From NCBI GenBank assembly GCA_048634245.1, contig JAIWAR010000003.1, positions 2,401 to 66,400 on the forward strand: 64,000 bases of DNA, given 5' to 3'. The stretch's first letter is position 1; the number at the start of each line of letters is the position of its first letter. Both the position numbers and the translations under genes were made by a program. The stretch comes from Methanosarcinales archaeon. GTDB lineage: Bacteria > Omnitrophota > Gorgyraeia > Duberdicusellales > 4484-171. Positions 2-64,000 of this stretch are shown here, in pieces. The notes under the pieces were generated by a model. That model made no database searches and had not been told where the DNA came from. It saw only the letters and a program-made list of their open reading frames with translations.

Positions 2-1100
2 GAAACAGTATTTAGGAATAGAGAAGAGCAGGAAAGAAAGTTAAGGAAGGAGATAGAAAGAGCAAAGGATAGAGGAGAAAATACACAAGGAATGGGAGCG
101 ATGAGTCCGGAAGAAGTGACTCGTTTTGTAAACTTTTTTGAGCGGTTGACAGTACATATGCTGGAGGAGATGCCTAAGAGAGCAGATCTGGTATTTGAGA
201 TGAGTGGCGGACATAGGATAAAGAATGTTTATCGTAATGAAAAATATGACGGGGGGAGTGAAAAATCGGATTTAAGTAAACATACAGGATCAGTTAAAGT
301 AACGGGGATAGTCAATGGCGTAGATATACAAAAGGTATTAGAGAAATACAATTTATCAAATATGCCTGCAGACACTGATGAAGAGATAAATGAGTTTAGG
401 GTGGCTTTAGCAGGGGCGATACGAGAAGAAGTGGGCGAAATAGATATCGGGTTGTTGATACCGTATTACCAGGAATATGGTAACGCGCCGCATGTGTTAA
501 GGACAATGATTGCCGGGTATGAGGGGTACTTTTCGGATAAACGAGCAGTGGTCATTGCGGTAGGGACAAAGGCCGCGGGTGAAGCCGGAGAACGAGCGCG
601 AGTATTATTAGAGGAAGAAGCGAATAAGCATGAGGGGAATCTTAATATTATAATTTTACACCTTGATGAAATAGAGAGAGGAAAAGGCCGCGGTTTGAGA
701 TGGGCATTTACGATTGCGCACGCCTTAAGGGCAGAGGCGATATTGCATTTAGACGCGGATTTGTATACAGAGATTAAAGGTGTATCGAGCAGAGAAAAAG
801 CAATTAATTGGAAAGAGTGCCCGGAAGAAAAATTCATGAGTTATATGGAATCACATCGTTTGCGTGGATTAAGCCCCTACTGGATAAAAGCGATGGTGGA
901 ACCGGTACTAGAGAGAGAAGTTGGATTAGTACTTCCGTACTATGTGCGGCCGATATTTGACGGAATGATTACTAAGTTTCTTATGTACATATGGGCTGTA
1001 GTATTTTATAAAGTAAATATAGAGCAGATAATCGCCGGAGATTTTTGTTTGTCAGGTAAGTTCGTGGATATGCTGTTAGAAGATGAGAAATTGTGGAAGG
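2..1100 (+). other. Domain: C-terminal part of a diverged GT-A glycosyltransferase, glucosyl-3-phosphoglycerate synthase (GT81)-like paralog (copy 0, continues upstream of window)
   Basis: Peptide ...IERGKGRGLRWAFTIAHALRAEAILHLDADLY... (nt ~680-770) matches the GpgS core PGGKGxALxxGLxxAxGDIVVFLDADL including the DxD. Downstream layout RY.R....L.Y....Q..G.F..S parallels copies at 2180 and 13690. Confidence 0.4.
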
Positions 1101-4100
1101 ATGAGAATTTCAATACGTTTGGATATGACAATGTTGTGACATCGTTGGCGATAGTGAAAGATTTTAAGATTATTCAAGCAGCGTTGGGAGAGAAATTGCA
1201 TAATGATAGTTCACGGATAAAAGAAAGAGTTATAAATGATAAGCAAATAGAAGAGCTAAAGAATGCTCGCGTTATTTTTGAAAAGAAAACAGGAGAATTT
1301 GAATTTGTGATAAACGATCAAACCGCAATAAAAGCGCGGATACGGGCGTATGTGTATGAACACCCTGAATCGAGTTTGCAGGATATAATATTATTAGATG
1401 AGATGGAGATAGATGGCAGGATTGTAAGGATAAAAGAAGACAATTTACGTCTTATGTTTAAGGAAGTATTCGCAGGAGCACATAGGTTTATGATAGAGAG
1501 GTGCGATGAGCTGGAAGCATTGATGGAAAGCGAGGTAACTAATATAGAGGTAACCGGACCGGAGTATCTACAGCGGATTTTACCGGTACAGATACAGTTA
1601 GATTATGAGAAGGTATTAGCAAAGTTTATAGAAGGGTATAATCTTTATTCGGGGATAATTAGTAATATAGTAAGTAGTAATAAAGAGACTTTTTCAGATA
1701 CGATAAAAGAATTAGTGAAAATAGCCGAAGAGGATCCCGATAATTTTGAATTTACAAATGAGTTATATGCGAAGATATTTCTTAAAGTAGCCGTGAGTAA
1801 ACAGAAAGGTATAGGTGATATAGATTTGGTGTTAGCGATGGAAGTATTATGGAGAGGAAGAGTCGCTTCATTTATAAAGAGAATAAATAAATACGCTAAG
1901 GAAAAGACGGAAGAGTATGGGCCGGAGGAAGCATATGAAATGGCGTATAAGTATTCACAGCATTTAGTAAGCGAACAATTGAGGATGGTAGAGCTGATAT
2001 TAGCACGGTATGCAGAGAGGTATAGAAACGCATTGCGAGAAAATGGGAATAACAAGGCTGCGGTGCGGGGTGATAAGCAATATGATGGTGGCAAGGCAGC
2101 TGAAGACGCAATACGCGAAGAGAAAAGACAAACGCGTTCTGTCTACAATGAGGCAATGAAAACGCCGTTCAAAAAGGCTGAAATTATAGGCAAGGTTGAT
2201 ATTGTTATTGGCATACCCTTTTTTGATGAAGTAGAGACAGTAGGTAATGTATTTAAGAAAGTAGTGGAGGACTTGAAAGAACATCACTCTGACAAGGAGT
2301 CTGCGATAATCTGCGCCGGCGGCCCTTCAGGCAAGCCTGCTCAGAAAGCTTTAAAAATTCTTGAAGGTATTACCCTGCCTTCCAATATAAAAAGGATAGC
2401 CTTTATTCTGCCTATTAGAGGTAAGGGCATAGGAGGAATGAGGCCGGTTATGGAACTAGCTGATATGTTGGGCGCTGAGGCCTGCACTTTCATTGACGCT
2501 GATGAGCGCAAGGTAACTAAAGAATGGGTTTCTCTTATGGTTAACCCCATATTAAATCAGGGATATGACTTTATTTCTTCCCGTTATGCTCGTTATAAAC
2601 ACTCCGCCACAATTACCAATCATCTAGCCTATCTTTTGATTGGAGCAATTTATGGACTAATAGTACGCCAGCCTATTGGCGGAGAATTTGCCCTTTCAAG
2701 AAGATTGATAAAATTATATCTTAAAAATCCTGAAGTCTGGTTTACCAATGTAGGTACTTACGGGGTAGATAATTGGCTTACTACAACAGCTATTGTTAAT
2801 AAGGTGAAAATGGGCGAGGTTGATTTAGGCATTAAAGCGCATAGTTTTAGTGCTTTTCCTAAACGGGGGGGGATGTTTATCCAGGTAACCAGTGAAATAT
2901 TTAGCCAGGTAAAGAAAAATGCGCCTTTCTGGAAAAAAGTAGAAAAGGTTAAGCCTATTGATACTGTTGGCCCGTTGAAGGGGGAAACACCTGAATCTGT
3001 ACCTCAGAAGTACAGGGAGTGGCTTGGCAAGTTTAAGGATAATTTCGAGAAAAATCTTCCTACATACAAAGAGATATTGCCGAGAGATATAGTTAATGAA
3101 TTAAAAATTCTGGTTTATACTGAAAATGAAAACTTTGAACTTAAAGCTTCAGTTTGGGCAAAGATTGTTTATACTTTTCTTCTTCATTATAGTTTTAGTG
3201 AGGAGCCTATAGGAGAAAAATTCTGGGACGCGCTGGTTGCCATATGGCAGGCGCGGGTAGGTTCTTTTATCAGAGAGACCGAAAAAATGAGCCATGAGGA
3301 AGCAGGAGAAGTTATCTATAAACAACTTGAAGAGTTTATCAGCGCAAGAGAGGGATTTGTTAATGAATGGAGAGAGAAAGAAGCAGGTTTTGACGGCGGG
3401 ACAAAAAGTAACGACATAGCGAAACGTCTTTGTAAAATATTCGCAAGTGAGAGTAAGTGGTATAAGTATATTGAAAAAAGTAAAAACAAAAAAGGCATCA
3501 CTGATGATAGGGAAGTAGTTTTGGGAGTAATACCGAAAGGACATTTTGAAGAAACAGACGAATATGACGATATTATTGCTTTGCATGGCGGAACCGGCGG
3601 CGCGTCCTTTGGAAAGTCGGTAGGGTTTTCGGAAGTAGCTAAATTTCTCAGCCAGAAACTTTCAACTGGTTTAGCTATTTCGCCTCACGATACCGGAGGA
3701 GCTTCCCGCAAACTTCAGGATAGAGTAGCCGGAGTTTTAGGCTATATACCTTCACCGGGAGATACGATGAATATTCTTTCCGGATTCAGCTCTTTTTACA
3801 AAAAGCTTATTTTGGGGACAAGGTTTAAAGATGATATTCAGCCTCATGAACTTTTTGTTGATAAAATAACCGAATTGCTTCAGAAGGTAGTTAATATGTC
3901 CGAGGATAAAGTTTTAGTTAAGAGTAATAAATTAACATGTGATTATCTGGAGTTTTACGAAAACAACTATATTATTCACTACAATAAGAATACTCGTATT
4001 TTAACTTTTACGAATACAAAACATAAACCTAACGAAACCAAGAAAGATATAGTAAAGGTAAATTTAAGTACAATAGAGGAATCCAAAGAAATAGAATTCG

Positions 4101-7100
4101 ATGGATTTAGATTTACTTTATCTAATAAAAATAGTGATTTTATATTAGAGGCGCCCTTTTTATTGGATGAAGACTGGGCTTATTTCTCCGCTGCTTTGAT
4201 TAGACTGGCTGGTGTTGTAGATGGATTTAAGAAGAAGTATAACCTTAGTAATCTTTTAGCCGGGGGAAGCATACAGAATTTTCTAATTCTTGGAGCAATG
4301 CTTGATACAGACGCATATAATACTAATAGAAAAACCGTAGATATAGATAAGTATAAAAAAGGCATTTCCAACCTTTGTTATATACTTTGCATAAAAGATG
4401 TTTCTCTTAAAGTGTTTCTTTCTACCTTTGAGGAAGGCACCCTCTACGTTAGGCTTAAAGATATGACTATTATAAAAGGAGGAGTTAACTATCAGCTAAA
4501 AGACGAAAACAAAGATGAGTTAGCAGAGGCAGGTGTAAAAATAGAACACTCGGAAATGGGCGAGTTTGATTTAGATATAAACGGCAGGTCTCTTAAAATA
4601 ATACAAGATATAAACGGAGTGGTTTATCGTAATTATCCAGATAAGGAAGACAGTAAAACTCAGGTTATTTTAACTCTGGGCAATAAGTTTTCTTTAGATT
4701 ATTCTTCGACAAAAGTGAATATAGAAAAAGATACAGAAGGAAATATAAAGATTACTTACGTGCAGAAGGGGAAAAAGCCGTTGACAGAAGATATGGTGAT
4801 AGGAAAAGAGTTTCCCATTATCTTCCAGTCTGAGTTTGAAGACTTAGGAGAAGGTGATAAACATTCTATAGCCAAAGTAATGCTTAATAAGAACAGTGAA
4901 ATTATAGTTACTCTGGATACACGGGGAGAAGGTGTTACCTTTTATCTAGGCGGGGAGGAAGTTGGCATAAAAGGAAGATTGGTTATTGAGCAAACTTGGA
5001 TTACAGAGAGTTTGCACTCAACGGGAATACAAAAGCTCGGTTTTATTAATAAAGCTTCTCCCAGTTATTATGATGAGCTGATTAGAAGGATAGAGAACAC
5101 CAACCTCTTAATTATGGGCCCGGGCAGTTTTTATACCAGCCTTCTCTCTATTCTTTTAATCCCGGAGATAGTTGAAGCATTAAAAAAGAGAATCAAGGAG
5201 GGAAAACCCAATCTTTATATATTTAACCCCTATATGGATAATGAAACTGTAGGTTTAAATAAGATTTCTGAAATAATAGATGCATTTGAGAGGTTTATTC
5301 CAGGAGTAAAGTTCAGCGATTTGTTTAATTACGTATTAATAAATGAATTAGAGGAAATTGAAAAAGATGCCCGTAATGGTGACGATGATGCTTTAAGGGC
5401 GTTAGAGCTTATGGATGAAATGGAGAGTAAACTTCAAGAATCAAAAGGCCGGCAAACTCGGACAGCAGGAGATTTTGCCAAGTTTTCAAAATATTCCCGA
5501 GGGGCTATTAAGTTTGATAAAGAAGCATTGTCTCTTTTATATCGGGATAATGTTAAAATATTTACCATAAAGGCGGCATTGGGCAAAAGAGCAGTACGTA
5601 AGGCTGGTAAAGCAGGAATAGAGGAAACTGTAAGATATGGAGAAGAAAATATTGCCAGAGTGATTGATGAAATTTACTGGATAGAAGAAAGGCTGAAGAA
5701 AGCGCCTAGATATACCAAAGTTCTTAGTGAATATTTTGAAGGTAATGAACCCGAATTAATACGCGAGATCGAGCGTTATCTAAATCAGGTAAAGGGAATG
5801 AGTCATCTTAATGTGATTTCGCAGTTCTTTGATGAATTAGAAGGTAAAAATAGGCAGCAGGGCGGTGATTTAGCAGGAGAATTCTTTGACACGCAGTTAA
5901 TCATATCTAACTTTAAACATACATTAGTCAAATATGATTCCTCTCGGCTTACAGATAAATTACAAAAATCTCTAAACAGTTTTTTAAAGAATAAACACAT
6001 GGTAGTTATTACCGGGCTTAAAATAGAAGATATGGAGAAGTCTTTTATTAACAGAATAGATGAAAATGTACGTAAAAACTTGATTATTGCTGAATGTTCA
6101 GGGGCAATTGTTTGGTATTTTAACAAAAAGGGGGAAAAAGAATTACTTTATTCGATGTGGGATGAAATAAGCGATAAAACTGATTTAAGGATAAAGTGGA
6201 ATAAGATTATAGATGATGCTATGTTTGAATTTAATCTGGATAAAAAATCGGAAGATGCAAAAGGAAATATACTGGATGAAATTACAAAAGTTGATAGAGG
6301 CGCCCAGATTACTTTGGAATTTGCTGAGAGAACTCACCTGAGTTTTGAGTTAAGTTTTGATATTAATAAAAAATTAGACTCTAATTTACCTATGATAGGC
6401 AAAGACGGAGATATGAGAACTCCTGTATGTAGGTATTTTAATACAAAATTTAAACAAAAGAAATTACCTTTAGTTGCTATTAAAGGCGGCACAGGCGCAA
6501 TTAATATAATACTTAAGAAGGTAGAAAACAAGGGGGATATAGTAAGGACAATATTACGTCTGGCTAAAGTTAAAGGAATAATACCTGAAGATAATTTAGA
6601 TGAAGACATTCTTGTTACCGGCAAAGATAATCGTGAGGTTATAGAAGAATTCCCATTGGCACATTGGCTGATGTTTAGGCAGGAAGAAGTACCTTTGGAA
6701 TTAAAAGACAGAATCGACAGGTGGCAGGGCGCTTACGGTGTAAAAGGAGTAGAAGAGTTCTTTGAAAGATTATTAGAAGACAAAAACGGCAATAAAGACG
6801 GCGGCAGCCTTTCCAAACCTGTATCGGAAGGGGTTGTGTTTGACGGGGGGAAGAATAGGAAAGATTTAGATATAAAAAAGCATCTTAGGAAGATATTCGA
6901 AGGCAATTTAGATGAAAATATCGAAAAAAGCGCAAAGAAAAAAGGTATTACCAAAGAAGAAGTAATCTCCGAAAAGACGCCGCCGGAACGAGAAATAAGA
7001 AAACCGGGGCAACCTGATGATATTGTGGCTTTGTATGGCGGTACAGGGGGAAGATTCTTTGGAGAATCGTTGAGATTCTCGGAATTAGTTAATTTTCTTA

Positions 7101-55100: not shown

Positions 55101-58100
55101 CCTTGATTATTTTCTTGCTTGGTTCAACTAATATTACCACTAAAGAGCTTAAAAACTTTCCGGAAATGCCTTTGGCGGCAGGAAACAATTTGTCTGGCCT
55201 CAAAAAATCAACATTGGATTCTACAGTTATGCATAAAAATATTGATTTTATAAGTGCTCTTATGAAGTGGCTGGCAATGCGAATCATGTCTCCTCCTGTT
55301 GATTGCCAGACAACAAAACTACCAGTCACAAAGACATGCTCTGATACCCTTGTGGGCACAAGCGGGTACAGGCAAAGTTACCAGCTATCGGCATCCCCAT
55401 ACCTAGTATATTTAATTACTAAAAATCTGAATATTACTTCGGTCAAAATCGACGAACGCAATGCGCTAAAAAATGACGGAGGCAGCGCAAGTATTAATAA
55501 GGATATTCTATTAAAGGCATTTAGAGAGCAGCTACTTATAGATTCAGTGCAAAGCTCAATGCTAGGCGCAGATAAAGAAAACAGAGAGGTTTTTGAATCT
55601 TCCATAGAGGCTTTAAAGCAAAAAGAGTGGAGAGTATGTTTTGTAAATTTAGGAGGAGCTGAAGTAATAAAATTTGAAGTATTTGGAGAGGCGGTTGTAG
55701 ATTTTAGTGATATAGAACTAATTTATAAATCTGGAAACCAAGATTATACAAATTTTGAAAAAGCCAAAAAAATGTTTAATATTGTATATGATTCTCTTAC
55801 TAAAAATATGAATTTAGATGAATACTCTCAACAAGGAATAGATATATTTCTTGGTCAGAATATTGCTAATTTATTTCAACACGTGCGTGGAATTAAGGGA
55901 AGTTATGCTATGTATATGGCAAAAGAGGTTGAGGCTGTGAACGGTCTGAAAGGGGTAAGGATTATAGCAATTGACACAGGCGGCGGATTCAAACATTTAG
56001 AGGGACATAAGAGCTTACATGAGTCAGTTATTGATGAGGCGTTGATTTGGCAGGGTTCCTATTTTTGTAGAAGCGGTGGTGGAATGTATGGTGAAGGCTT
56101 GAATTATTCTTTGGCGATGAGTGAGGTTTTTAGGATAGTGACACAAAATGAGATAGCAGTATATCTACATCCAGAAAGAGGCAGGACCTTTATCGGCTGC
56201 AGCGAGTATTTTCCTCTTGATGATCGGATATTTTATGCCAGGGGAGAAAATTTAAGAGTAAAAGGCACCTTGATAGATGCTGTATTTATAGCGAAAGGAG
56301 ACAATAAGACGTCAACAGACTGGAATTCTATGATAGCAGTGTTGATAGCTGAATCTTATATTTTTTATAATAGAATAGCGGATGTTGAAGCATTGCGGAA
56401 ATTCTCCGGCGTGACTAATAGAGTAGATGGTTCCTTAGATGGGGGGAGAAAGTGTAGAACCGAAGATAAAGTAAATATTGCTTCAGGAACCTGGACCGAG
56501 GAGTGGCATTTAGAATTAAATAAAATGATAGAAGTACTTATCGGAACAGATGAGGATGTAACAGATAAGTATAACCAGGAAGAGTTGATTAAAGAGTTGA
56601 AAAGTGTTCTGACTAATCTAATGTCAGTTATTCCTGAAAAATTAAAAGAAAACATTGAAAAATCTTTAAAAGATAAAGATCCTTCGTTGACAATAGAGAA
56701 ATTAATCGGTTCTTTGGATAAGATTTTAGACAAACCTGAATTTAAGTTCTTCTTTTTAAAACCTCTATACGGAGATGATGTATTCAGATTTATGGGCAAA
56801 AAAGATGGTAAAGACGTTATCTTGACCGCTCAAGCTCATTTTGGACATAATAAAACCAAAGGAGATAAAAGAGAAGAAAATGTATATATTTCCAGTTTGC
56901 ATTTTGACAGTCTTGCAAAATCAGAGAAATTAGGCCTTATCACTCACGGAATGATACATCTTGTATTAGGTAAAGGAGAAGATACCCATAAGTTGGCGGA
57001 ATTGTTTAGATTGGGAGTCGATTATAGTTATGATAAAGAAAATTTAGATTTAGATAAGGTTAAGAATCTTTTGAGAAATTATATGATTGCGAAAGAAGAG
57101 TTAGCTCAAGCCATAATCGATGAAGAAAGAGAAGAGGCGTTTGATAAATATAATAAGTTCAAACAGATTATTGATAATATAAGTAAATGTGATGTTTCAA
57201 CCGGAACTTTATCTCTAATCATTTTTGAAGAAATTGCTCCTAAAGTCGGTCCTGTTTTAGCGGAAATAATCTCTAATATAGGTTTTGCCGGAAGAGATAT
57301 AAATCAAAGAGGCATACTTATGGACAGGGTATTTTCTAAGTTTGGTATAGAGAGAATACTTTCCAACTTAGTTTTTGATAATATAAAAAGCCTTCCTTTG
57401 GAAGAGATGAGGAGTAATGATTATATAAGAGATATAATTTATATGATTTCTCAAGCTCTGGCTGAAGAAATAAATATTATTTCTAATCCCCAGTGGCCTG
57501 ATTTCATGAGAGAGTTGATCGATAAAGTGCTTAAAGAGGTAACGGATGCGTTGTATGATGATGACCCGGCAAGAAAATATTGGTTCGATAAGTTAACTCA
57601 GGATATTTTACCATATACTATAGAAAACCTTGTTCCTGAAGATTATTTTAAAAAAGGCATGTTCACCGAAAAGAAAGAGTATATTATAGGTATGATATTT
57701 TCTCTTAATAAAACAATAAGGGCACAAGGAAGCCAAATTCATGAGTTAGGAAAAATATTTATAACCTCGGATTGGAATCGCCTGGAGACAAGAGCAACTT
57801 TAATTCATGAGCTTGTTCATCATTTAGCCGAACTTGACCAAATAAAAATAGAAACGGGTTGGGAATTCATTACTTTTGCCATTGACCTTTGTGAGAAGAT
57901 AATTCATTTAAGAGATGGGGATATTAAAGCTGCTGAAGATAAGATCCAGGTTTATTCCCAAGGCCAGGTTCCTTTTTATAAAGAATTATATTTAAAAGGA
58001 AAGGAAATTTCGCAAAAAGGAGATTCCGCGTATATCCTTAAACCTCATCAATCCGAAGAAGCAAGAGGGTACTTTTCTATTGATTTACTTATAATAGAAG

Positions 58101-61100: not shown

Positions 61101-64000
61101 ATATAGAGGTTTTCGGTATAAGTGTGGGTGATAAAGAAGCAATGCAGACTGTTCTTAATGCTTTTGGAGAAGAAAGAGCCGTTCTTCCTGAGAATCCGGA
61201 TTTAAGTGATTTGCCGGAACGTGTATTAAAGAAGTTTGCTGAAATTTTAGCTCCGCCGAATCATGAAATATCCTGGGATCAGATACTTTCTGACGGCGGG
61301 GAGGTGGAAGAAACTGGAGAACTCAGAGAAACCGGGTACCGACACTTTTTCTATCAGGAAATAGGGGGGAAAGACTATTTGGTATGGCAGAAAGAAGACG
61401 AGAGTGGGCATATGCACAAACTAATGTGGCAGAGAGGCCAGGGTGGTCCGAATGTGCCGGATGTAATAACCATAGATGACGATGAAAACGAACAATTGAT
61501 ATTAGATATATTACAGGCATTATATATCGAAGGGGTGGATTACACATCATATTCAAAAGACGGCAGATACTATTTAAGGAAGTTTGGTAAGAACAGAGTG
61601 GTATTGATGGAAAGAGAAGATTCCAAAGATTGGGTAATAAGGAAAGAATTCAGGATACAGAAAGAACCGGCTAAGAGCAAAGAAGAAGACGGGTACAAAA
61701 TATTTAAGAACAAGAATATAGAGTGGCGTATAAATAAAGAGAAGAAATTAGATTTAAGAGTCGGAGAAAACAAATGGGTTCAGGTAATAGGAAATAACGG
61801 AGGATTTAGTGAATATTTAGAAGTAGAATACGATGCTAAAGAAAAAGGGTATATGATATTTGATTCAATAAGCAAAAGAATAGTAATAGCAAGAAGTAAA
61901 GAAAGGGCAGATGAATTGCATATTATATGTGATATAAAAGTAGAGAAACTTAAAAGTTCGGAAGAGTGGGAAGGAAAGATAATTAGGCTGATAGGGTATA
62001 CCGGGTTAGGAAAAGATGAAATATTGAGAGCGGCCGGGCACCTCATGAATGAAGAAGAATTTTTTGTGGCTGGCAATTATGATATGGAACCGGAAGACTT
62101 TTTTGAGTATCAGACTTTAGGAATAGAGGAAGGGTTAACAACAGGACATTTATATACAGTAGTAAATAAGATATTTCATAACGGAGGCTGGGGAGTCATA
62201 GATGAAATATCCAAGATAAAACCTAAAGTATTGAGTGTTTTAAAGACATCGATAGCGGCCAAAACACATCAGAGATGGGTAAAGGATGATAAAGAAAAAG
62301 GAGGAGAGAAATTAGATACAATGGCAAACCATTCAAGAGCGCGGTTAATCGGGACATTGAACCAATTGATTGCCGGAATAACGGGAGCGGGATATTCAGA
62401 CCAGGCAACACAGGACAGATTAAAAGATATACCTTTTGTATGGAGGAAACCGAGTTCAGAAAAGAAGCTGCAATTTGAGTTAGCCATGAGGAAACTGAAA
62501 GAAATCAGGCCGGAATTAGAAGACGAAGAATTAGATTCCGAAAAAGAAAGGATTAGAGCAATAGTAGATGTATTGGTAGATGTAGCTTGGCCGATGAGAT
62601 TAGCGTTTGCCGGATATGATGCGGAGCAGGTAGCAAAGTTCACAGAAGATGACTTTAAGAATTGGGATAAATTATTAAAAGACGCGACATTCGCGCCTAA
62701 GACAAAAGCCGGAAAGAATTTAAAGAGAGCGCCGAGTCCCAGGGTGATAGGGAATATTGTACAGCAGGCGATAATGTTCCCTAAGCTTTGGGAAAACGAA
62801 CCCTGGACAATAGTAGAAATGTGGTTCAACCTTTACGCGGATGACCTAAAACCCCAGGAAAAGAAAAGACAATCACAGGCAATAAAAACTCAGTTTGAGA
62901 ACCCGGCTCAAAGAGGAGGAGATAACGGTATAAAGAATAAGGATGATCTCCCAGCAATAGAGTTAACCTTAGAATCATTTAAAGTAGAAGGAGAGTATCT
63001 GATAGTTACCCCTAAGAAAGTAGAAGCCAACGGAGAATATGTAGAGTATTGGGACCAGATAAAAGTATGGATACACCCGGATTCCAGGGAATACATAGAA
63101 CAATACGGATTACCGGAAGAAGTACACTACTGGTTAGGAACTCAGAGCATATATAACAGCAGGCAGATGTATTTAGCCTTACAAGTTAGAGCCTTAGGAA
63201 AGAGCCTTATATTTGTAGGTAAACAAGGGACAGGAAAAAGTGTATTAGCTGAAACTATAGGTATACTGTTAGACGGAGAAGAAGTTCCTCAAATAGAAAT
63301 CAAGAAAGATACAGATAAAGAAGAATTGACATTTAAGCCATATTTAAGAGGAGCGATATCAGGGTTTGATTACGGGCCTTACGCTGTAGGGGTGAGAGAT
63401 CATAAGACAGTGATATCAGAAGAAACTACCCAAGGCCAGCCGGGAGTAATCGGAGTAAGTAACGAAGCTATAGAAAGACAGTTTATGGTGCATCCTGACG
63501 GGACAAAAATAGGGAAAGAAGGAGACGGAAGATTCGGGGTAATTCATGCAATAAACCCGCCCGGTAACACCAGGTTTTCAGTAAAAGCATTTAGCGACGA
63601 ATATATAGAACGGCACGCGGTATTATGGTTTGAGACATCGAGCCCGGAAGAGATGTACAATTACCTGTTACCGGTGTCAGAAAGGAAAGGAATAAGAGTT
63701 AATCCGCGGATAATCGGAGAAAAGTTAAGAGATGCCGACGGAGAAATAGCATTAGTAAACGGGCAGGAGAAATGGATAGGATTAGTAGGTATGGTCCAGG
63801 ATTTATTGATAAAAGAAGAGACCAATCCTTTAGATAAAAAGTTACCGTTACGAATACCTGGATACAGAGCATTAAAGAGCTTAATAAAAGATATGCGCAG
63901 TTACTGGGAAGTAAACGCGGCATTTAGTAAAGATCATAGGCAGGAACTGTTATTAGATAAATTTTTAGATAACTTTGTAATGGAAGGCAGCCCGGAAGAA
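2..64000 (+). CDS. Single giant ORF, partial at both ends (at least 21,333 codons in window); multi-domain mega-protein
   Basis: Manual translation in phase 2 (codons at 2,5,8...) gives continuous protein-like sequence with no TAA/TAG/TGA across the window. The ORF track lists no plus-strand ORF in phase 2 (an M-to-stop ORF would have to appear if any stop existed) and lists none in phase 1; all six listed plus ORFs start at coordinates divisible by 3. Canonical enzyme motifs occur in this frame throughout (see domain features). Confidence 0.9.
2090..3380 (+). repeat. Dispersed internal duplication, copy A (~1.3 kb; partner at 13620-14900), covering the GT81-like domain and ~160 aa downstream
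   Basis: Near-colinear protein identity, EEKRQTRSVYNEAMKTPFKKAEIIGKVDIV... versus NKEKRQIRSTYNEAMKAPFKKAEIIGRADIV..., through ...EEFISAREGFVNEWREKE versus ...EEFIEARRDFVDKWREKE. Antisense artefact ORFs 2341..2550 and 13858..14067 are near-identical (MGLTIRETHSLVTLRSSASMKVQ...). Confidence 0.8.
2180..2900 (+). other. Domain: GT-A fold glycosyltransferase, glucosyl-/mannosyl-3-phosphoglycerate synthase (GT81)-like, copy 1
   Basis: Motifs IVIGIPFFDEVETV (cf. GpgS LPALNEEETI), RGKGIGGMRPVMELADMLGAEACTFIDADE (GKG...DAD motif), IGGEFALSRRLI (cf. LGGEYAATRELL), DLGIKAHSF (cf. NLGVRAH). Confidence 0.6.
3500..5700 (+). other. Module A of a tandem duplicated ~2.2 kb unit containing a YvcK/CofD-family (UPF0052, gluconeogenesis-factor/2-phospho-L-lactate-transferase-like) fold with large insertions
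   Basis: N-terminal DIIALHGGTGGASFG ... AISPHDTGGASRKL (nt ~3570-3720) and C-terminal LIMGPGSFYTSLLSILLIPEIVEAL (nt ~5110-5190), the hallmark GPGSxYTSxxPNLLxP-type motif of YvcK/CofD. Confidence 0.5.
6960..9140 (+). other. Module B of the tandem duplicated YvcK/CofD-like unit
   Basis: DIVALYGGTGGRFFG ... AISPHDDGGASRKLQ (nt ~7020-7170) and LSMGPGSIYTSLLPILLIPEIIEAL (nt ~8550-8630). Colinear with module A over ~700 aa (e.g. LGYIPSPGDTMNILSG identical in both; TFEEGTLYVRLKDMTIIK versus TFEPGTLYVKLSDMTIIK). Confidence 0.55.
9460..9900 (+). other. Domain: NUDIX-hydrolase-like
   Basis: GIWHATAQVLVIDQSGRMLIQVR followed by SGHLKPNESYEKQALRVIDETL, approximating the Nudix box Gx5Ex7REUxEExGU (variant). 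Confidence 0.35.
11260..11720 (+). other. Domain: HAD-IIB (Cof/sucrose-phosphatase-type) phosphatase-like, probably degenerate
   Basis: C-terminal block GGSTSIDFARKDINKSIAAEDLIRGARLEKERDLLLAIGDEFIFTGVDFAFLK resembles the HAD-IIB SIDI..GVSKGxALxxL....eeviAfGDsxNDxxML block, but the ND dyad is replaced by TG. Candidate motif I is PFIDLRTNIG (second Asp replaced by Arg). Confidence 0.3.
12040..13560 (+). other. Domain: alpha-D-phosphohexomutase (phosphoglucomutase/phosphomannomutase family)
   Basis: FGTSGWRGVIG (N-terminal), active-site TASHNP (nt ~12340), metal-binding loop DGDADR (nt ~12850), sugar-binding GEESAH region. Order and spacing typical of PGM/PMM. Confidence 0.8.
13620..14900 (+). 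repeat. Dispersed internal duplication, copy B (partner of 2090-3380)
   Basis: See copy A. The nucleotide strings are visibly near-identical, e.g. ggcataggaggaatgaggccggttatggaa occurs in both copies. Confidence 0.8.
13690..14420 (+). other. Domain: GT81 glucosyl-3-phosphoglycerate-synthase-like GT-A domain, copy 2
   Basis: IVVGIPFFDEVKTV, RGKGIGGMRPVMELADMLGAEACTFIDADE, IGGEFAFSKRLM, DLGVKAHSF. Confidence 0.6.
15790..17600 (+). other. Domain: multipass-membrane glycosyltransferase region, cyclic beta-1,2-glucan synthase (NdvB/ChvB/Cgs, GT84)-like
   Basis: Hydrophobic helices (LGAIFSIAILETAAVLFYLALL, IALVSLAFFFVF; later FLLIFGWF, LFVSLLAVF, ICVWLMNIALYIF, LPILIFWSI). GT-A core YVITLDEDIEVP (DxD-like) and the processive-GT motif KRKERWTRGDWQ (QxxRW-like) at nt ~16900. 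Confidence 0.5.
17650..22450 (+). other. Domain block: NdvB-like C-terminal region with two GH94-type N-terminal beta-sandwich repeats and a GH94 (cellobiose/chitobiose-phosphorylase-like) (alpha/alpha)6 catalytic barrel
   Basis: Twofold internal similarity: KYFYIKDEDSQKVWSLGFDP...LEIWQITLQNEGKGERNLSVTSYLEW (nt ~19100-19380) versus KILYIRDLDTNEIFSPTYNP...LEIWILKLKNLGKERKRLAVTNYFEL (nt ~20470-20740). GH94 hallmarks TPRPWAHILANPEYGTLVTNSGAGYSWFMNAQQNRITPF and GAGDWNDGFSNVG ... VRENGGQYTHAATW ... GWTWYTGAAAW (nt ~21670-22370). Confidence 0.6.
22655..23530 (+). repeat. In-frame tandem repeat array: ~8 PBS-lyase-type HEAT repeats, period 111/114 nt (37/38 aa)
   Basis: Repeated SKLTDSNGNVQQAVVRALASVYPELIQQEKMSLSALE / SKLTDSNWGVRQAAVKALASIYPKLIQQGKTPDLSALE units. 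The nucleotide repeats are directly visible (e.g. ccagcaagctgctgttaaggc..., tatccgccttagaaag... recurring). Confidence 0.8.
25980..27230 (+). other. Region of multiple predicted transmembrane helices inside the giant protein
   Basis: Hydrophobic stretches FLICFAVEIFQMGLPFLFYFLSCVFIPGL, IGYILLLPFWLSIISAF, GILLGVIDVSSGIFAFSAIGIALATMLL, PLFIALAVILI, ITLGIFAGIVLFVSTFKILGIFGCIGGGLILGGLI, IAGVTGMLLIGIGSIFGLWSL, LYMIVSFLTGVFITLIV. Confidence 0.5.
27340..27700 (+). other. Domain: minimal nucleotidyltransferase (Pol-beta superfamily NTase)
   Basis: NILGIVVYGSVAEGTAVLASDLDFLVI (nt ~27425-27505) fits hG[GS]x9-13Dh[DE]h. Confidence 0.5.
28000..29500 (+). other. Domain: glucose-6-phosphate isomerase (PGI)-like
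   Basis: WVHIGVGGSKLPTE (PGI signature 1-like, GIGGSxLG) at nt ~28260; PEGMGGRFSGFSAVALLLLAVAA (PGI signature 2, G-G-R-[FY]-S) at nt ~28820-28890; downstream conserved GLHINTVVGSPYNHTGLEG region. Confidence 0.65.
29600..30900 (+). other. Domain: glyceraldehyde-3-phosphate dehydrogenase (GAPDH/E4PDH family)-like, catalytic Cys and His present
   Basis: LSCTSNAMLGIIWAL (cf. ASCTTNCLAPLAKV) at nt ~30307; TIHAAT (cf. TVHAIT); STGAAKNLFKILPELEGRFLIKAYRVGT (cf. [28 protein letters not shown]); YDNQSAAPGQ (cf. YDNEFGYS); upstream IDIAVEYGPGKEAGGKF...RVVCASP resembles the NAD-domain segment IDVVVESTGVF...KVIISAP. Confidence 0.65.
32560..33300 (+). other. Domain: radical-SAM-like (CxxxCxxC cluster motif)
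   Basis: LQITKGCSHGCKGCYYKAG at nt ~32650-32690 (C-x3-C-x2-C preceded by a Gly-rich loop). Confidence 0.4.
33600..34000 (+). other. Domain: class I SAM-dependent methyltransferase
   Basis: Motif I ILSLGCGRKG (nt ~33725), motif II HVVAMDFIGSRI, motif III-like FDVVYSH. Confidence 0.55.
34030..34230 (+). other. Two predicted transmembrane helices
   Basis: LSLLGTFLLIVFIGFGLPFTLYLLYV and FLIGILVAIPYLFGIIPYI. Confidence 0.4.
36090..36650 (+). other. ARM/HEAT-like helical repeats (~4 units)
   Basis: Recurrent GxxQxxAIxxLxKLIT units: GISQLQAITFLVKLITF, YRLQAITALDEFFS, GEFQFEAIAVLGKLITV, GEFQAEAIIILFEFISS, each followed by a (N/D)(L/D)DDLLF-type segment. Confidence 0.35.
36850..38395 (+). other. 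Domain: 2,3-bisphosphoglycerate-independent phosphoglycerate mutase (iPGM/GpmI), full length
   Basis: PLVLVILDGWG, GNSEVGHLNIGAG (phospho-Ser site), HIMGLISDAVIHSS, AITDGRDS, FFNFRADRARQ, AETQKFAHVTFFFNGR, IANADMVGHTG, IADHGNAE, all in canonical iPGM order over ~510 aa. Confidence 0.85.
38480..38800 (+). other. Domain: GNAT-acetyltransferase-like (weak)
   Basis: YFDIFPQRQGLGRVLWKHI resembles GNAT motif A (Q/RxxGxG/A); flanking beta-rich segments. Confidence 0.25.
42270..42420 (+). repeat. Low-complexity Gly/Ser/Ala-rich linker
   Basis: GIASSGAASEGSTGSGAAGSNADSSSGSADGGTLDSGGIGSG. Confidence 0.6.
44580..44800 (+). repeat. Highly charged Lys/Glu/Arg-rich segment (predicted single alpha-helix or coiled coil)
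   Basis: EKQRAEEERKKLEEKKQKALKEKRQLRKQKALKTRKSFRRQRRLEEEAKIKKAQEEKEKRVAAAEE. Confidence 0.6.
46080..47150 (+). other. Domain: GH15 (glucoamylase/glucodextranase-type) (alpha/alpha)6 barrel-like
   Basis: GRHWPRDSGIAV (cf. the WxRDSA motif), TPWARPQNDGPALRAMALIDY (cf. glucoamylase GRPQRDGPALRATA), CYDLWEDLTGYHFWT (cf. DLWEEV...FFT), GNPWFVATAWFAQYY. Confidence 0.65.
48505..49370 (+). repeat. Dispersed internal duplication, copy A (partner at 54985-55430), interrupted by a ~460 nt insertion (48560-49015)
   Basis: LELKRTKFLETEETN ... GYESYFMENDGAQHLNEFFNFLIIFLLGSTNITTKKIKSFLEMPLAAGNN...HKNIDFIDDFMDWLAMRITSPP versus LELKRTKFLGTEETDAGYESYFMKNDGSQHLNGLFDSLIIFLLGSTNITTKELKNFPEMPLAAGNN...HKNIDFISALMKWLAMRIMSPP. 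Antisense artefact ORFs 49030..49269 and 55051..55359 (and 49324..49554 / 55378..55605) share sequence. Confidence 0.7.
49880..50680 (+). other. Domain: possible guanidino-group-modifying enzyme (amidinotransferase/agmatine-deiminase superfamily)-like fold (weak)
   Basis: C-terminal GDISMHGGSYRCSS resembles the GGGxxHC catalytic-Cys motif of agmatine/arginine deiminases. Internally repeated GFKVIRIP... / GFKVVRIGG... modules suit a pentein propeller. Confidence 0.25.
53400..53780 (+). other. TPR-like helical repeats
   Basis: LKVLSDLYWKGGDLGMSACCKERVGDLLKAAGDREEAFKWYRWAVLTYRKTKNFEAANNCNKKASKL with W/Y-LG-Y-A-F spacing typical of TPR. Confidence 0.35.
53890..54750 (+). other. Domain: HAD-superfamily hydrolase-like
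   Basis: Motif I IIMDIDKTVT (DxDxT) at nt ~53895-53925, motif II-like LLISGSP, motif IV IIGIGDSTLDDF (GDxxxD) at nt ~54690. Confidence 0.45.
54985..55430 (+). repeat. Dispersed internal duplication, copy B (partner of 48505-49370)
   Basis: See copy A. Confidence 0.7.
57780..57850 (+). other. HExxH motif (possible zinc-metallopeptidase-like site)
   Basis: ATLIHELVHHLAELD. A second His-rich helix GLITHGMIHLVLG lies at nt ~56940. Confidence 0.25.
59280..60280 (+). repeat. Low-complexity acidic, Ser/Gly/Glu/Asp-rich disordered region with an embedded helical heptad-like segment
   Basis: SSLDSQGSHGEQGSQSGGAKPQSGQFGSQGKP...; ...ELQEKLNELKKLSQRLNKF...; ...SEESTDKGDQNMGDNSAAESGTGNDQRSSDSSGSEGSSQTSEVEQSPDEPESGKSSDSKS. 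Confidence 0.5.
60650..61200 (+). other. Domain: von Willebrand factor type A (vWA) with MIDAS motif
   Basis: VKITLLIDRSGSMSGDRI (DxSxS MIDAS) at nt ~60664-60710; downstream Rossmann-like alternation and GDGNVN (T/D-containing loops). Confidence 0.6.
61900..62450 (+). other. Domain: AAA+ ATPase, MoxR/dynein-midasin (AAA_5)-type, with degenerate Walker A
   Basis: IIRLIGYTGLGKDEIL (GxxGxGKD, S/T replaced by D) at nt ~61981; Walker B HNGGWGVIDEISK at nt ~62184; sensor-like ARLIGTLN. Confidence 0.45.
63150..63700 (+). other. Domain: AAA+ ATPase, MoxR/midasin (AAA_5)-type, canonical Walker A
   Basis: SLIFVGKQGTGKSVLAETIG (nt ~63205-63260); downstream GVIHAINPPGNTRFSVKAFSDEYIERHAVLWFE, the characteristic ATxNP/arginine-finger region of AAA_5. 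Confidence 0.6.

Follow-up and report, generated by a model that had tools for sequence, protein, structure and literature searches.

How does a bacterium handle the product of a gene that strings complete enzymes together over tens of kilobases, and if such a product is cut into working pieces, where do the cuts fall? The giant genes of Omnitrophota are among the longest described, and published work asks whether their product acts as one chain or is cut, while stating that the proteins cannot be divided because the cleavage points are unknown. The window analysed here, that is, the whole 64,000-nucleotide stretch of DNA, raises this question because a single reading frame extends through it and the tripeptide Asp-Gly-Gly (DGG) recurs along that frame. 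The preliminary description had counted about 45 occurrences of DGG, encoded by short GC-rich islands in AT-rich surroundings and concentrated at module junctions, and had read them as a conserved inter-module punctuation motif, leaving undecided whether it served as a hinge or turn, a processing site, a target of a modifying enzyme or a nucleotide motif used in module shuffling.

We first examined whether the motif is enriched beyond chance. Frame +2 (nt 2-64000, forward strand) contains no stop codon in 21,333 codons and is open at both ends of the window, whereas the other five frames contain 656-2343 stops. In this frame, DGG occurs 44 times, against 6.2 expected from composition and 9.3 from a first-order Markov model (Poisson P = 5.7e-23), and is the most enriched of all tripeptides, the runner-up having P of about 2e-5. 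Three thousand global shuffles yielded a mean of 6.1 (sd 2.5, maximum 16), and shuffling within 60-residue blocks a mean of 6.4 (maximum 16), so that chance and composition are rejected under all four null models. The order of the residues matters, with GDG occurring 5 times and GGD 3 times, whereas NGG, SGG and AGG are found at expectation. At the nucleotide level, GAYGGNGG occurs 44 times in the coding frame, once in another forward frame and never on the reverse strand, and the description of the sites as GC-rich islands is correct. The observation itself is thus confirmed.

We then asked whether the sites coincide with domain boundaries, a point on which the interpretation had been staked beforehand. 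None of the DGG lies inside the 15 Pfam envelopes (3915 residues), where 8.1 would be expected, and eight of the 9 domain ends that reach the end of the Pfam profile have a DGG within 40 residues on the outer side (null mean 0.71; 0 of 20,000 permutations reached 8). Some details of the preliminary description did not hold. No vWA domain was detected, and the HAD domain that had been placed after a DGG does exist (Hydrolase_3, about aa 3546-3734, E = 8.6e-6) but lies about 470 residues after the nearest upstream DGG. Furthermore, about 13 sites lie in unannotated sequence with no verifiable junction, and some apparent junctions lack DGG, for example after aa 1907.

All sites lie on the forward strand and are identified here by amino-acid position. 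DGG 83 (nt 248-256) marks the seam between the kinase-like and first glycosyltransferase (GT)-like modules, with DGG at the aligned position in one related protein, P0003, and AGG in another, P0001. DGG 695 (nt 2084-2092) precedes GT-like module 1 and is conserved in the related protein P0002 (DGG 395), where a methyltransferase follows instead. GT-like module 1 (aa 704-1130, nt 2111-3391), the start of a paralogue block, is equivalent to a whole free-standing protein of about 415 aa and is duplicated at aa 4543-4968 (nt 13628-14905). DGG 1131 (nt 3392-3400) is the seam between GT-like module 1 and CofD-like module A; it coincides with the end of one paralogue block and the start of the next, and the free-standing homologues of about 415 aa end here. 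DGG 2266 (nt 6797-6805) and DGG 2281 (nt 6842-6850) form a pair 15 residues apart, the former in the linker before CofD-like module B and the latter at its start, aligned with DGG 1131, with homology starting at F-DGG. At least one site, DGG 2381 (nt 7142-7150), is probably incidental, being internal to a conserved domain, where the window reads SPHDDGGASRKLQ and the paralogue SPHDTGGASRKLQ. DGG 3076 (nt 9227-9235) lies at the end of CofD-like module B, for which paralogue homology ends at aa 3061.

The sites bracket whole, protein-sized enzyme modules (PGM/PMM, GH94, iPGM, GAPDH-like and GH15). The PGM/PMM module (aa 3995-4536, nt 11984-13609), a complete four-domain enzyme (PGM_PMM I-IV) to which phosphoglucomutases in the PDB align nearly end to end, lies between DGG 3992 (nt 11975-11983) and DGG 4537 (nt 13610-13618). 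PGM_PMM_I starts at aa 4016, where residue 24 of PDB 2z0f aligns, so that its residue 1 would fall at about 3993, whereas PGM_PMM_IV ends at 4509 and the second GT-like module starts at 4543. The end of GT-like module 2 is marked by DGG 4969 (nt 14906-14914), aligned with DGG 1131 and with no homology beyond it. The cellobiose-phosphorylase-like GH94 module (aa 6755-7497, nt 20264-22492; Pfam E = 2.9e-136 and 3.4e-114; PDB 8ho9 residues 4-781) lies between DGG 6752 (nt 20255-20263) and DGG 7498 (nt 22493-22501). Residue 4 of 8ho9 aligns at aa 6758, 4 residues after the DGG, the Pfam GH94 supersandwich starts at 6776 and Glyco_hydro_94 ends at aa 7463. A doublet, DGGRTDGG, follows at DGG 7532 (nt 22595-22603) and DGG 7537 (nt 22610-22618), the latter 15 residues before the HEAT array, which starts at aa 7552. 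DGG 8359 (nt 25076-25084) has no independent boundary evidence. DGG 8848 (nt 26543-26551) precedes a cluster of hydrophobic, TM-like segments (aa 8878-9072), and DGG 9093 (nt 27278-27286) follows this cluster, 35 residues before the nucleotidyltransferase domain. DGG 9296 (nt 27887-27895) lies between the nucleotidyltransferase (NTP_transf_2 ends at 9197) and a PGI-like module (similarity at aa 9402-9521).

The GAPDH-like module (aa 9904-10302, nt 29711-30907; Gp_dh_C and GAPDHs of the PDB) starts at DGG 9901 (nt 29702-29710) and ends at the doublet DGGETDGG, formed by DGG 10303 (nt 30908-30916) and DGG 10308 (nt 30923-30931), with Gp_dh_C ending at aa 10274. In the related protein P0151, the same module (87% identity) also starts right after a DGG but follows iPGM. 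DGG 11197 (nt 33590-33598) lies between the radical SAM (ending at 11063) and methyltransferase (starting at 11238) modules, and DGG 11323 (nt 33968-33976) between the end of the methyltransferase (11314) and a module with two TM-like segments (11349 and 11386). DGG 11700 (nt 35099-35107) has no independent boundary evidence. The iPGM module (aa 12269-12799, nt 36806-38398), a complete enzyme that aligns with free-standing iPGMs and with residues 4-511 of the 511 of Geobacillus iPGM (PDB 1ejj), lies between DGG 12266 (nt 36797-36805), with the Metalloenzyme domain starting at 12285, and DGG 12800 (nt 38399-38407), 1-2 residues after the position (aa 12798) at which the last residue of 1ejj aligns. 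Both sites are conserved in P0151, where a different module follows the second.

Downstream, DGG 12959 (nt 38876-38884) has no independent boundary evidence, DGG 13360 (nt 40079-40087) lies 43 residues before an F420_oxidored-like domain (a weak Pfam hit), DGG 13687 (nt 41060-41068) precedes a TM-like segment at aa 13743, DGG 14118 (nt 42353-42361) lies in a Gly/Ser-rich unannotated stretch, and DGG 14151 (nt 42452-42460) and DGG 14212 (nt 42635-42643) follow. DGG 15296 (nt 45887-45895) and DGG 15338 (nt 46013-46021) form a pair 42 residues apart before the GH15 glucoamylase module, the second at its N-terminus: Glyco_hydro_15 starts at 15364 and residue 30 of PDB 27xj aligns at aa 15366, so that residue 1 extrapolates onto DGG 15338. 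DGG 16237 (nt 48710-48718) has no independent boundary evidence, and a protein search with the unannotated region aa 16237-17266 returned no hits. A duplicated module of 150 residues (aa 16335-16480 matching 18342-18496) starts at DGG 16322 (nt 48965-48973) and ends at DGG 16476 (nt 49427-49435), its second copy being delimited by DGG 18324 (nt 54971-54979) and DGG 18492 (nt 55475-55483). The remaining sites are DGG 16899 (nt 50696-50704), DGG 17264 (nt 51791-51799), DGG 17931 (nt 53792-53800), DGG 18813 (nt 56438-56446) and DGG 20431 (nt 61292-61300), the last of which lies 229 residues before the AAA_5 ATPase domain. Overall, the iPGM, PGM, GH94, GH15 and GT-like modules match free-standing proteins almost end to end, with DGG at or within about 15 residues of their termini.

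The closest relatives of the encoded protein (57-87% identity) are fragments of the metagenome-assembled genome GCA_023143035.1, one named ‘Candidatus Omnitroph...’, whereas more distant ones are named ‘Candidatus Omnitrophica bacterium’; no marker gene lies in the window, and scans of genome and metagenome contigs returned no further relatives. Four fragments of the related genome carry 12 DGG against 1.4 expected and keep them at the same seams, but the modules are re-ordered, inserted or deleted exactly at DGG. For instance, a 1015-residue cassette lying exactly between DGG 10308 and DGG 11323 is missing from P0151, in which ETDGG is conserved and the sequence then continues with the equivalent of aa 11326 onward.

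Is the constraint exerted on the protein or on the DNA? The motif is encoded by 23 of the 32 possible 9-mers, with variation confined to synonymous positions, and paralogous and orthologous seams keep D-G-G, with different codons, as the only conserved element of otherwise non-homologous linkers, although the AGG of P0001 shows that Asp is not absolute. The nearest analogue, EGG, is the most depleted tripeptide (0 vs 9.1 expected, and 0 vs 2.7 in the relatives). Gly and Pro are excluded at position -1 and nearly so at +1, Lys/Arg is enriched at +1 and the flanks are hydrophilic (z = -4). Selection on the protein does not by itself explain the GC-rich wobble bases, which reach 0.55-0.64 in the three codons and the next one against 0.32, also in the relative; generic selection for codon accuracy was rejected as their cause, given that invariant catalytic Asp/Gly residues of the iPGM module have a GC3 of 0.32.

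Some other large multi-enzyme proteins use different seam words in the same position. In P0293, which carries a Peptidase_S8 domain, SSS occurs 26 times against 2.9 expected (SSS/SSP seams), in runs that mix the AGY and TCN serine codons, whereas in P0301 G-A-R-L-A brackets the AceK and PGM modules at 9-21 residues. However, several others (P0292, P0294-P0298) show no comparably strong seam word. The use of other words argues for a lineage-specific recognition site rather than a generic hinge.

Taken together, the analysis establishes, with a confidence of about 0.9, that the window is an internal piece of a giant multi-enzyme gene of an Omnitrophota-type bacterium, the product of which is a string of complete, ordinary-sized enzymes and other modules (median spacing about 400 residues) with DGG as the lineage-specific seam between them, that the tripeptide is kept by selection on the protein, not on the DNA, and that DGG-bounded modules behave as cassettes that are duplicated, inserted, deleted and re-ordered. 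What we infer beyond this, with a probability of about 0.45, is that DGG is the recognition site of an endopeptidase of the double-glycine type, cutting after Gly-Gly and encoded elsewhere in the same giant protein or genome, so that the product would be a bacterial polyprotein that is cut, or at least nicked, into individual enzymes, in the way large-virus polyproteins are cut at Gly-Gly-X. In this view, recombination between sites that are all in the same frame and form GC-rich islands in AT-rich DNA would yield in-frame products, explaining the cassette behaviour as a by-product. The order and identity of the residues, their position at natural protein termini, the avoidance of EGG, the lineage-specific alternatives and the free order of modules, as expected if the products act separately, are all consistent with this reading, and the interpretation of the preliminary description is thereby partly supported: the inter-module punctuation motif holds and, among the mechanisms it offered, a processing or recognition site is the best supported, but remains an inference from sequence alone, without proteomic evidence of cleavage.

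Several results weigh against cleavage. No peptidase domain was detectable in the 21,333 residues by Pfam, including at relaxed thresholds, or by a sequence search of the PDB, although the ends of the gene, where C39 or S8 domains are reported in such giants, lie outside the window. The only lead for a zincin-like peptidase in cis, and a weak one, is an HELVH (HExxH) motif at aa 19269 (nt 57806-57820), one of 2 HExxH against 0.35 expected, with a putative metallopeptidase family, DUF6782, scoring below the cut-off (E = 0.13); an AlphaFold single-sequence model of aa 19180-19400 was unusable (pLDDT 39), and the ‘IHPYFF...HELxSH’ mini-module of other giants is HExxxH rather than HExxH. In addition, 17 of the 44 residues after GG (K, R, L, W) would be destabilizing N-termini under the E. 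coli N-end rule, if it applies to this phylum.

Comparison with characterized systems places the locus among, but also sets it apart from, several of them. The giant multi-enzyme ORFs of Omnitrophota, namely, the ‘Archaeovorin’-type giants (West-Roberts et al., 2023; bioRxiv 10.1101/2023.11.21.568195) and the ‘multi-enzyme metabolic clusters’ (Nielsen and Lui, 2026; bioRxiv 10.64898/2026.06.07.730766), share with the window a single ORF of tens of kilobases (here, more than 64 kb) in AT-rich DNA, HEAT arrays, glycosyl transferases and hydrolases, PGM/PMM, radical SAM, methyltransferase and glycolytic enzyme domains and scattered TM segments. None of the C39 or S8 peptidase and SecA-like domains characteristic of the N-terminus of such giants lies inside the window. 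Neither paper mentions DGG: one states that cleavage points are unknown, and in the other the words motif, cleavage, junction, linker and polyprotein do not occur. The seam word and its lineage-specific equivalents appear to be undescribed, no paper in the literature searched linking Omnitrophota giants with a seam motif or polyprotein. In the polyproteins of large DNA and RNA viruses, such as African swine fever virus pp220/pp62 (cut by pS273R), adenovirus ((M/I/L)XGG-X, adenain) and coronaviruses (LXGG, PLpro), several mature proteins are likewise encoded in one ORF and separated by a short site ending in Gly-Gly, with otherwise variable flanks and a word that differs between lineages, but the gene described here is cellular, encodes ordinary metabolic enzymes, is at least ten times longer and carries Asp three residues before the presumed cut, with no cognate protease identified. 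Double-glycine leader peptides of bacteriocin and quorum-peptide exporters (PCAT family) are cut after Gly-Gly by C39 domains, which are reported near the N-terminus of giant Omnitrophota proteins; Gly-Gly is invariant in the 44 sites by definition and kept in the AGG variant, but classical substrates have one N-terminal amphipathic leader with conserved hydrophobic positions (-4, -7, -12, -15), whereas here there are dozens of internal sites without position-specific conservation upstream and with hydrophobic residues depleted at -6 to -4, and no C39 domain in the window. In polyubiquitin and ubiquitin-fusion precursors, head-to-tail units ending in RGG are released by deubiquitinases, but the units here are unrelated enzymes of 125-1800 residues, not beta-grasp domains, with Asp before GG. 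Finally, AROM, CAD and the fatty-acid, polyketide and non-ribosomal peptide synthases also join whole enzymes by short exposed linkers, but these are not known to share a single exact tripeptide, the proteins stay uncut and their module order follows the chemistry, whereas here the order is free between relatives.

Among the alternatives, the one that survives best, although we consider it unlikely, is a passive structural seam, whereby DGG, a helix- and strand-breaking turn with an Asp cap and two glycines, would insulate the folding of neighbouring modules and provide a hinge in a protein that stays in one piece, with other lineages having settled on other breakers by descent. The sites lie in short hydrophilic linkers between folded modules, Gly-Gly is intrinsically flexible, SSS/SSP resembles ordinary Ser/Pro linkers, no peptidase is seen in the window and published topology work pictures these giants as membrane-anchored multi-enzyme scaffolds (10.64898/2026.06.07.730766). 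However, a hinge neither needs one exact word in one exact order nor predicts the absence of EGG or the depletion of adjacent Gly and Pro; G-A-R-L-A is helix-favouring rather than a breaker, and only the tripeptide is constrained in linkers otherwise free in length and sequence.

Considerably less likely is the possibility that the DNA motif comes first, GAYGGNGG being a microhomology or recombinase core site kept in one frame so that recombination between any two copies shuffles, deletes or duplicates modules, with the amino acids as a consequence. The breakpoints at DGG and the GC-rich wobble positions are compatible with this scenario, as is the base after the motif, which is A in 30 of 44 sites. 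By contrast, a DNA signal would also occur out of frame and on the other strand, where the counts are 1 and 0, there is no flanking nucleotide conservation or inverted-repeat signal, and in the recent paralogue pair (79-88% identical) DNA homology stops 9 nt before one motif and starts about 30 nt after the other, with the motif codons differing at all wobble positions, which rules out recombination exactly at the motif in this pair. The mixed serine codon families of the SSS seams also count against it. As the primary cause it is disfavoured, but a secondary role as in-frame microhomology is not excluded. Equally unlikely is a docking or modification site without cleavage, bound by a partner (for example, the HEAT/TPR arrays of the same protein, a chaperone or a translocase) or modified by an enzyme: DGG has the properties of a short linear motif, exposed, with a strict core, variable flanks, lineage specificity and avoidance of the near-cognate EGG, and HEAT and TPR peptide-binding arrays are present in the ORF, but no binder or modifying enzyme is known for D-G-G, three residues with no reactive side chain other than Asp are a poor modification target and nothing in the window points to a partner. 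A translational signal (programmed pause, frameshift-and-stop, peptide-bond skipping or internal initiation), suggested by the strict frame and the rarer G/C-ending codons, as might suit a pause at domain boundaries, is very improbable, because RNA structure around the sites does not differ from controls, stops in the -1 or +1 frame are not in excess nearby (the +1 stops being, if anything, farther away), in-frame start codons, ATG and downstream Met are not enriched, the Shine-Dalgarno-like core GGAGG is found in only 10 of 44 sites and DGG lies up to about 41 residues upstream of the inferred module start rather than 5-10 nt, no upstream nascent-peptide conservation is seen, and different lineages use unrelated words although the ribosome is conserved.

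A strict seam word at the natural ends of recognizable enzymes makes the question of whether these giant proteins act as one chain or are cut directly testable, and gives a practical rule for dividing them into units for annotation and structure prediction. A broader and more tentative possibility is that some bacteria with giant genes express whole sets of metabolic enzymes as virus-like polyproteins, with each lineage having its own seam word read by a co-evolving peptidase carried in the same giant protein, for example, C39 for Gly-Gly and S8 for Ser-rich seams; whole enzymes could then be swapped in and out as in-frame cassettes, and the seam words would give the first residue-level map of how these giants are processed. 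The finding that different lineages use different words, and that modules move as seam-bounded cassettes, suggests a general grammar for how such genes are built and evolve.

Frame +2 of the window contains no stop codon in 21,333 codons, whereas the other five frames carry 656 to 2343 stops, and the whole window is therefore an internal piece of one giant gene. The DNA is AT-rich (35-41% G+C), and the coding strand is strongly purine-rich over the entire stretch (1-64000), with a GC skew of +0.18 to +0.32 and a mostly positive AT skew; more speculatively, such a G-rich, C-poor transcript would offer few Rho-loading sites. The only closed ORFs of 150 aa or more (22213-22776, 37508-38236 and 62269-62829) are all on the minus strand, antisense to the giant ORF, and are probably spurious. 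In the open frame, the tripeptide DGG occurs 44 times, against 6.2 occurrences predicted from composition and 9.3 from a first-order Markov model (Poisson P = 5.7e-23), making it the most enriched of all 8000 tripeptides by about 18 orders of magnitude over the runner-up. Three thousand shuffles never exceeded 16 occurrences, and shuffling within 60-residue blocks gave the same result. The recurrence of this tripeptide, pointed out in the preliminary description, is thus confirmed. The order of the three residues matters, as GDG occurs 5 times and GGD 3 times, whereas NGG, SGG and AGG are at expectation. At the nucleotide level, the pattern GAYGGNGG occurs 44 times in the coding frame, once in another frame and never on the opposite strand.

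Pfam searches revealed two CofD-like domains, a complete four-domain phosphoglucomutase/phosphomannomutase, a HAD hydrolase, a glucoamylase-like plus GH94 region related to cyclic beta-1,2-glucan synthase, a HEAT array, a nucleotidyltransferase, a GAPDH C-terminal domain, radical SAM, a methyltransferase, a complete cofactor-independent phosphoglycerate mutase (iPGM), a GH15 glucoamylase, TPR repeats and an AAA_5 ATPase. None of the DGG lies inside any of the 15 domain envelopes, where 8.1 would be expected, and of the nine domain ends that reach the end of their Pfam profile, eight have a DGG within 40 residues on the outer side (null mean 0.71; none of 20,000 permutations reached 8). Alignment to solved structures sharpens this picture: the last residue of the 511-residue Geobacillus iPGM aligns at aa 12798, with DGG starting at 12800; residue 4 of cellobiose phosphorylase aligns at aa 6758, just after DGG 6752-6754; and residue 1 of a bacterial phosphoglucomutase and of a glucoamylase extrapolates onto DGG 3992 and DGG 15338, respectively. 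An exhaustive protein search showed that the module between DGG 695 and DGG 1131 corresponds to an entire free-standing protein family of about 415 residues, and the median spacing of the sites, 402 residues, is the size of an ordinary bacterial protein. By our tally, at least 30 of the 44 sites have independent evidence of being at a module boundary, one (aa 2381) is inside a conserved domain and about 13 lie in sequence with no annotation. The flanks are hydrophilic (z = -4) and show no position-specific conservation apart from enrichment of Lys/Arg just after the motif and exclusion of Gly/Pro next to it.

Some of the modules have features of their own. The stretch at 17675-22492 (aa 5892-7497) is collinear with the C-terminal half of cyclic beta-1,2-glucan synthase (PDB 8rf9; homologues P0271-P0290 of about 2800 residues), and its GH94 supersandwich is duplicated (aa 6324-6600 and 6780-7049), with DGG 6752 lying between the copies. 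For the iPGM module (36806-38398), the best-scoring free-standing homologues (50-55% identity), apart from one Omnitrophota fragment, include many Methanosarcinaceae/Methanococcoides archaea and Firmicutes, which could hint at acquisition from methanogen prey or neighbours. Clusters of hydrophobic TM-like segments (aa 5264-5809, 8672-9072, 11349-11404, 13743 and 20236) interrupt the chain of soluble enzymes, so that the product is probably membrane-anchored at intervals, and several of these clusters start shortly after a DGG.

The 44 sites use 23 of the 32 possible 9-mers, and comparison of recent internal duplications indicates that selection acts on the protein rather than on the DNA. One pair of duplicated segments, aa 704-1163 and aa 4543-4999, is 79-88% identical; both copies are bracketed by DGG at both ends, and homology vanishes outside the brackets. 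At the DNA level, homology begins about 30 nt after the upstream motif and ends 9 nt before the downstream one, and the motif codons differ at every wobble position. Thus, DGG is a conserved island in otherwise unrelated linkers and not part of the copied DNA. Two further paralogue pairs behave likewise.

The only close relatives available are four short contigs of one fragmented MAG, GCA_023143035.1 (57-87% identity), one of whose proteins is named as Candidatus Omnitrophota. These fragments carry 12 DGG against 1.4 expected, at the same seams as in the window, although one seam reads AGG. By contrast, the order of modules differs. In the relative, iPGM is followed after DGG by the module that in the window starts at aa 9904 (TPTRILVSAANA...), and after the conserved ETDGG, the relative continues with the sequence corresponding to aa 11326 onward of the window, which therefore holds an extra 1015-residue radical-SAM-plus-methyltransferase cassette lying exactly between two DGG. 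Furthermore, where the window has a GT-like module after DGG 695, the relative has a methyltransferase. Modules therefore move as DGG-bounded cassettes. Tandem doublets of the form DGGxTDGG occur twice in the window (22595-22618 and 30908-30931), and similar pairs 2-20 residues apart occur in the relative (DGGSLVDGG, DGGNREELCDGG; contigs L001 and L002), as if two modules each brought their own seam. In contig L007 (1-2848), which encodes the database protein P0151, the annotated start methionine is an artefact, because the ORF continues in frame to the contig edge; the GAPDH-like module of the relative also lacks about 150 residues present in the window (aa 10136-10285).

A search with 5000 residues of the window returned eleven large multi-enzyme proteins (2769-7066 residues), several of which are named as Omnitrophica MAG proteins and all of which share the PGM module. 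None is enriched in DGG, but several have their own overwhelming tripeptide: SSS in P0293 (26 vs 2.9 expected, P = 1e-16; DNA in L004) and in P0291, SSP in P0299, and ARL, as part of G-A-R-L-A/S, in P0300 and P0301 (the latter in L005). P0009, a protein recovered in the exhaustive search, also shows repeated SSSP words by eye. In P0301, the G-A-R-L-A word brackets the AceK module (aa 98-678) at aa 82 and 690 and the PGM module (aa 1627-2159) at aa 1606 and 2168, which is the same geometry as that of DGG here. In the DNA of P0293, which also carries a Peptidase_S8 domain, the SSS runs mix the two unrelated serine codon families, again showing selection on the protein. Some other large proteins (P0292, P0294-P0298) show no comparably strong word; the phenomenon is therefore frequent but not universal, or some seams are more degenerate. 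Several large relatives (P0005, P0059, P0296 and P0300) share an N-terminal domain after a signal-like segment (…IQDLHC.PEVQ…/…IQDAHTNESGQ…), outside the window, which by eye resembles the ChaN/TraB/Tiki-type fold family.

The analysis establishes that the sites mark module seams and are under protein-level constraint, that the word is lineage-specific and that modules behave as cassettes, whereas what the motif does, including any cleavage, is inferred from sequence alone. The preliminary description is partly supported: its core reading, a conserved inter-module punctuation motif, is supported, whereas the mechanism behind the motif is unproven. In our view, DGG is most likely a recognition site for endoproteolytic processing, a tentative reading to which we assign a probability of roughly 0.45. 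First, the units are complete enzymes whose order is free, which fits products that act separately. Second, the word is strict and ordered, and its nearest analogue, EGG, is the most depleted tripeptide of the ORF (2-64000; 0 vs 9.1 expected) and is also absent from the fragments of the relatives (0 vs 2.7); a site read by a specific factor would behave this way, whereas a passive hinge would not. Third, chemically unrelated words occupy the same position in other lineages, which is the pattern of co-evolving protease and site pairs in viral polyproteins. Finally, published work on these giants suspects cleavage, while stating that the cleavage points are unknown. Against this reading, no peptidase is detectable in the window, the ends of the gene lie outside it and could not be recovered, and the upstream amphipathic leader of classical C39 substrates is absent. 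Two HExxH motifs are present (0.35 expected), at 57806-57820 (aa 19269) and 31295-31309 (aa 10432); the first, ...ETRATLIHELVHHLAE, gives only a sub-threshold hit to the putative metallopeptidase family DUF6782 (E = 0.13), and the AlphaFold single-sequence model had a pLDDT of 39, too low to be usable.

Among the alternatives, a purely structural insulator or hinge survives best, but appears unlikely. A binding or modification site and a primary DNA-level role are both, and about equally, improbable. With regard to the latter, the wobble positions of the three motif codons and of the next codon show an unexplained GC-richness (0.55-0.64, against 0.32 for the gene and 0.20-0.43 in the flanks), with GAC at 59% vs 21% elsewhere and GGC at 41% vs 21%, and the base after the motif is A in 30 of the 44 sites. 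The bias is also seen in the related contig L001, and GGC is frequent in one contig of the relative. Invariant catalytic Asp and Gly residues of the iPGM module do not show it, so it is not general accuracy selection, but Asp before any Gly codon also prefers GAC, so part of the effect is a context effect. The bias would raise microhomology between seams and could favour in-frame recombination, which fits the cassette behaviour but remains conjectural. Translational signals are not supported, as no RNA structure was found around the sites and there is no frameshift-stop, start-codon or Met signal.

The gene itself belongs with the giant multi-enzyme ORFs of Omnitrophota type, which have been described previously, whereas the seam word is mentioned in neither of the two papers devoted to these genes (West-Roberts et al., 2023, 10.1101/2023.11.21.568195; Nielsen and Lui, 2026, 10.64898/2026.06.07.730766), and literature searches linking Omnitrophota giants to polyproteins or cleavage sites returned no other relevant paper. 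The closest functional analogues are the Gly-Gly-X cleavage sites of large-virus polyproteins, the double-glycine leaders cut by C39 peptidases, and polyubiquitin. We do not assign the motif to any of these, because the cognate protease and the cleavage itself are only inferred and the C39 leader feature is absent. The seam word turns an explicit question in the biology of the Omnitrophota giants, namely whether the product acts as one chain or is cut, into one that can be addressed by direct experiment.
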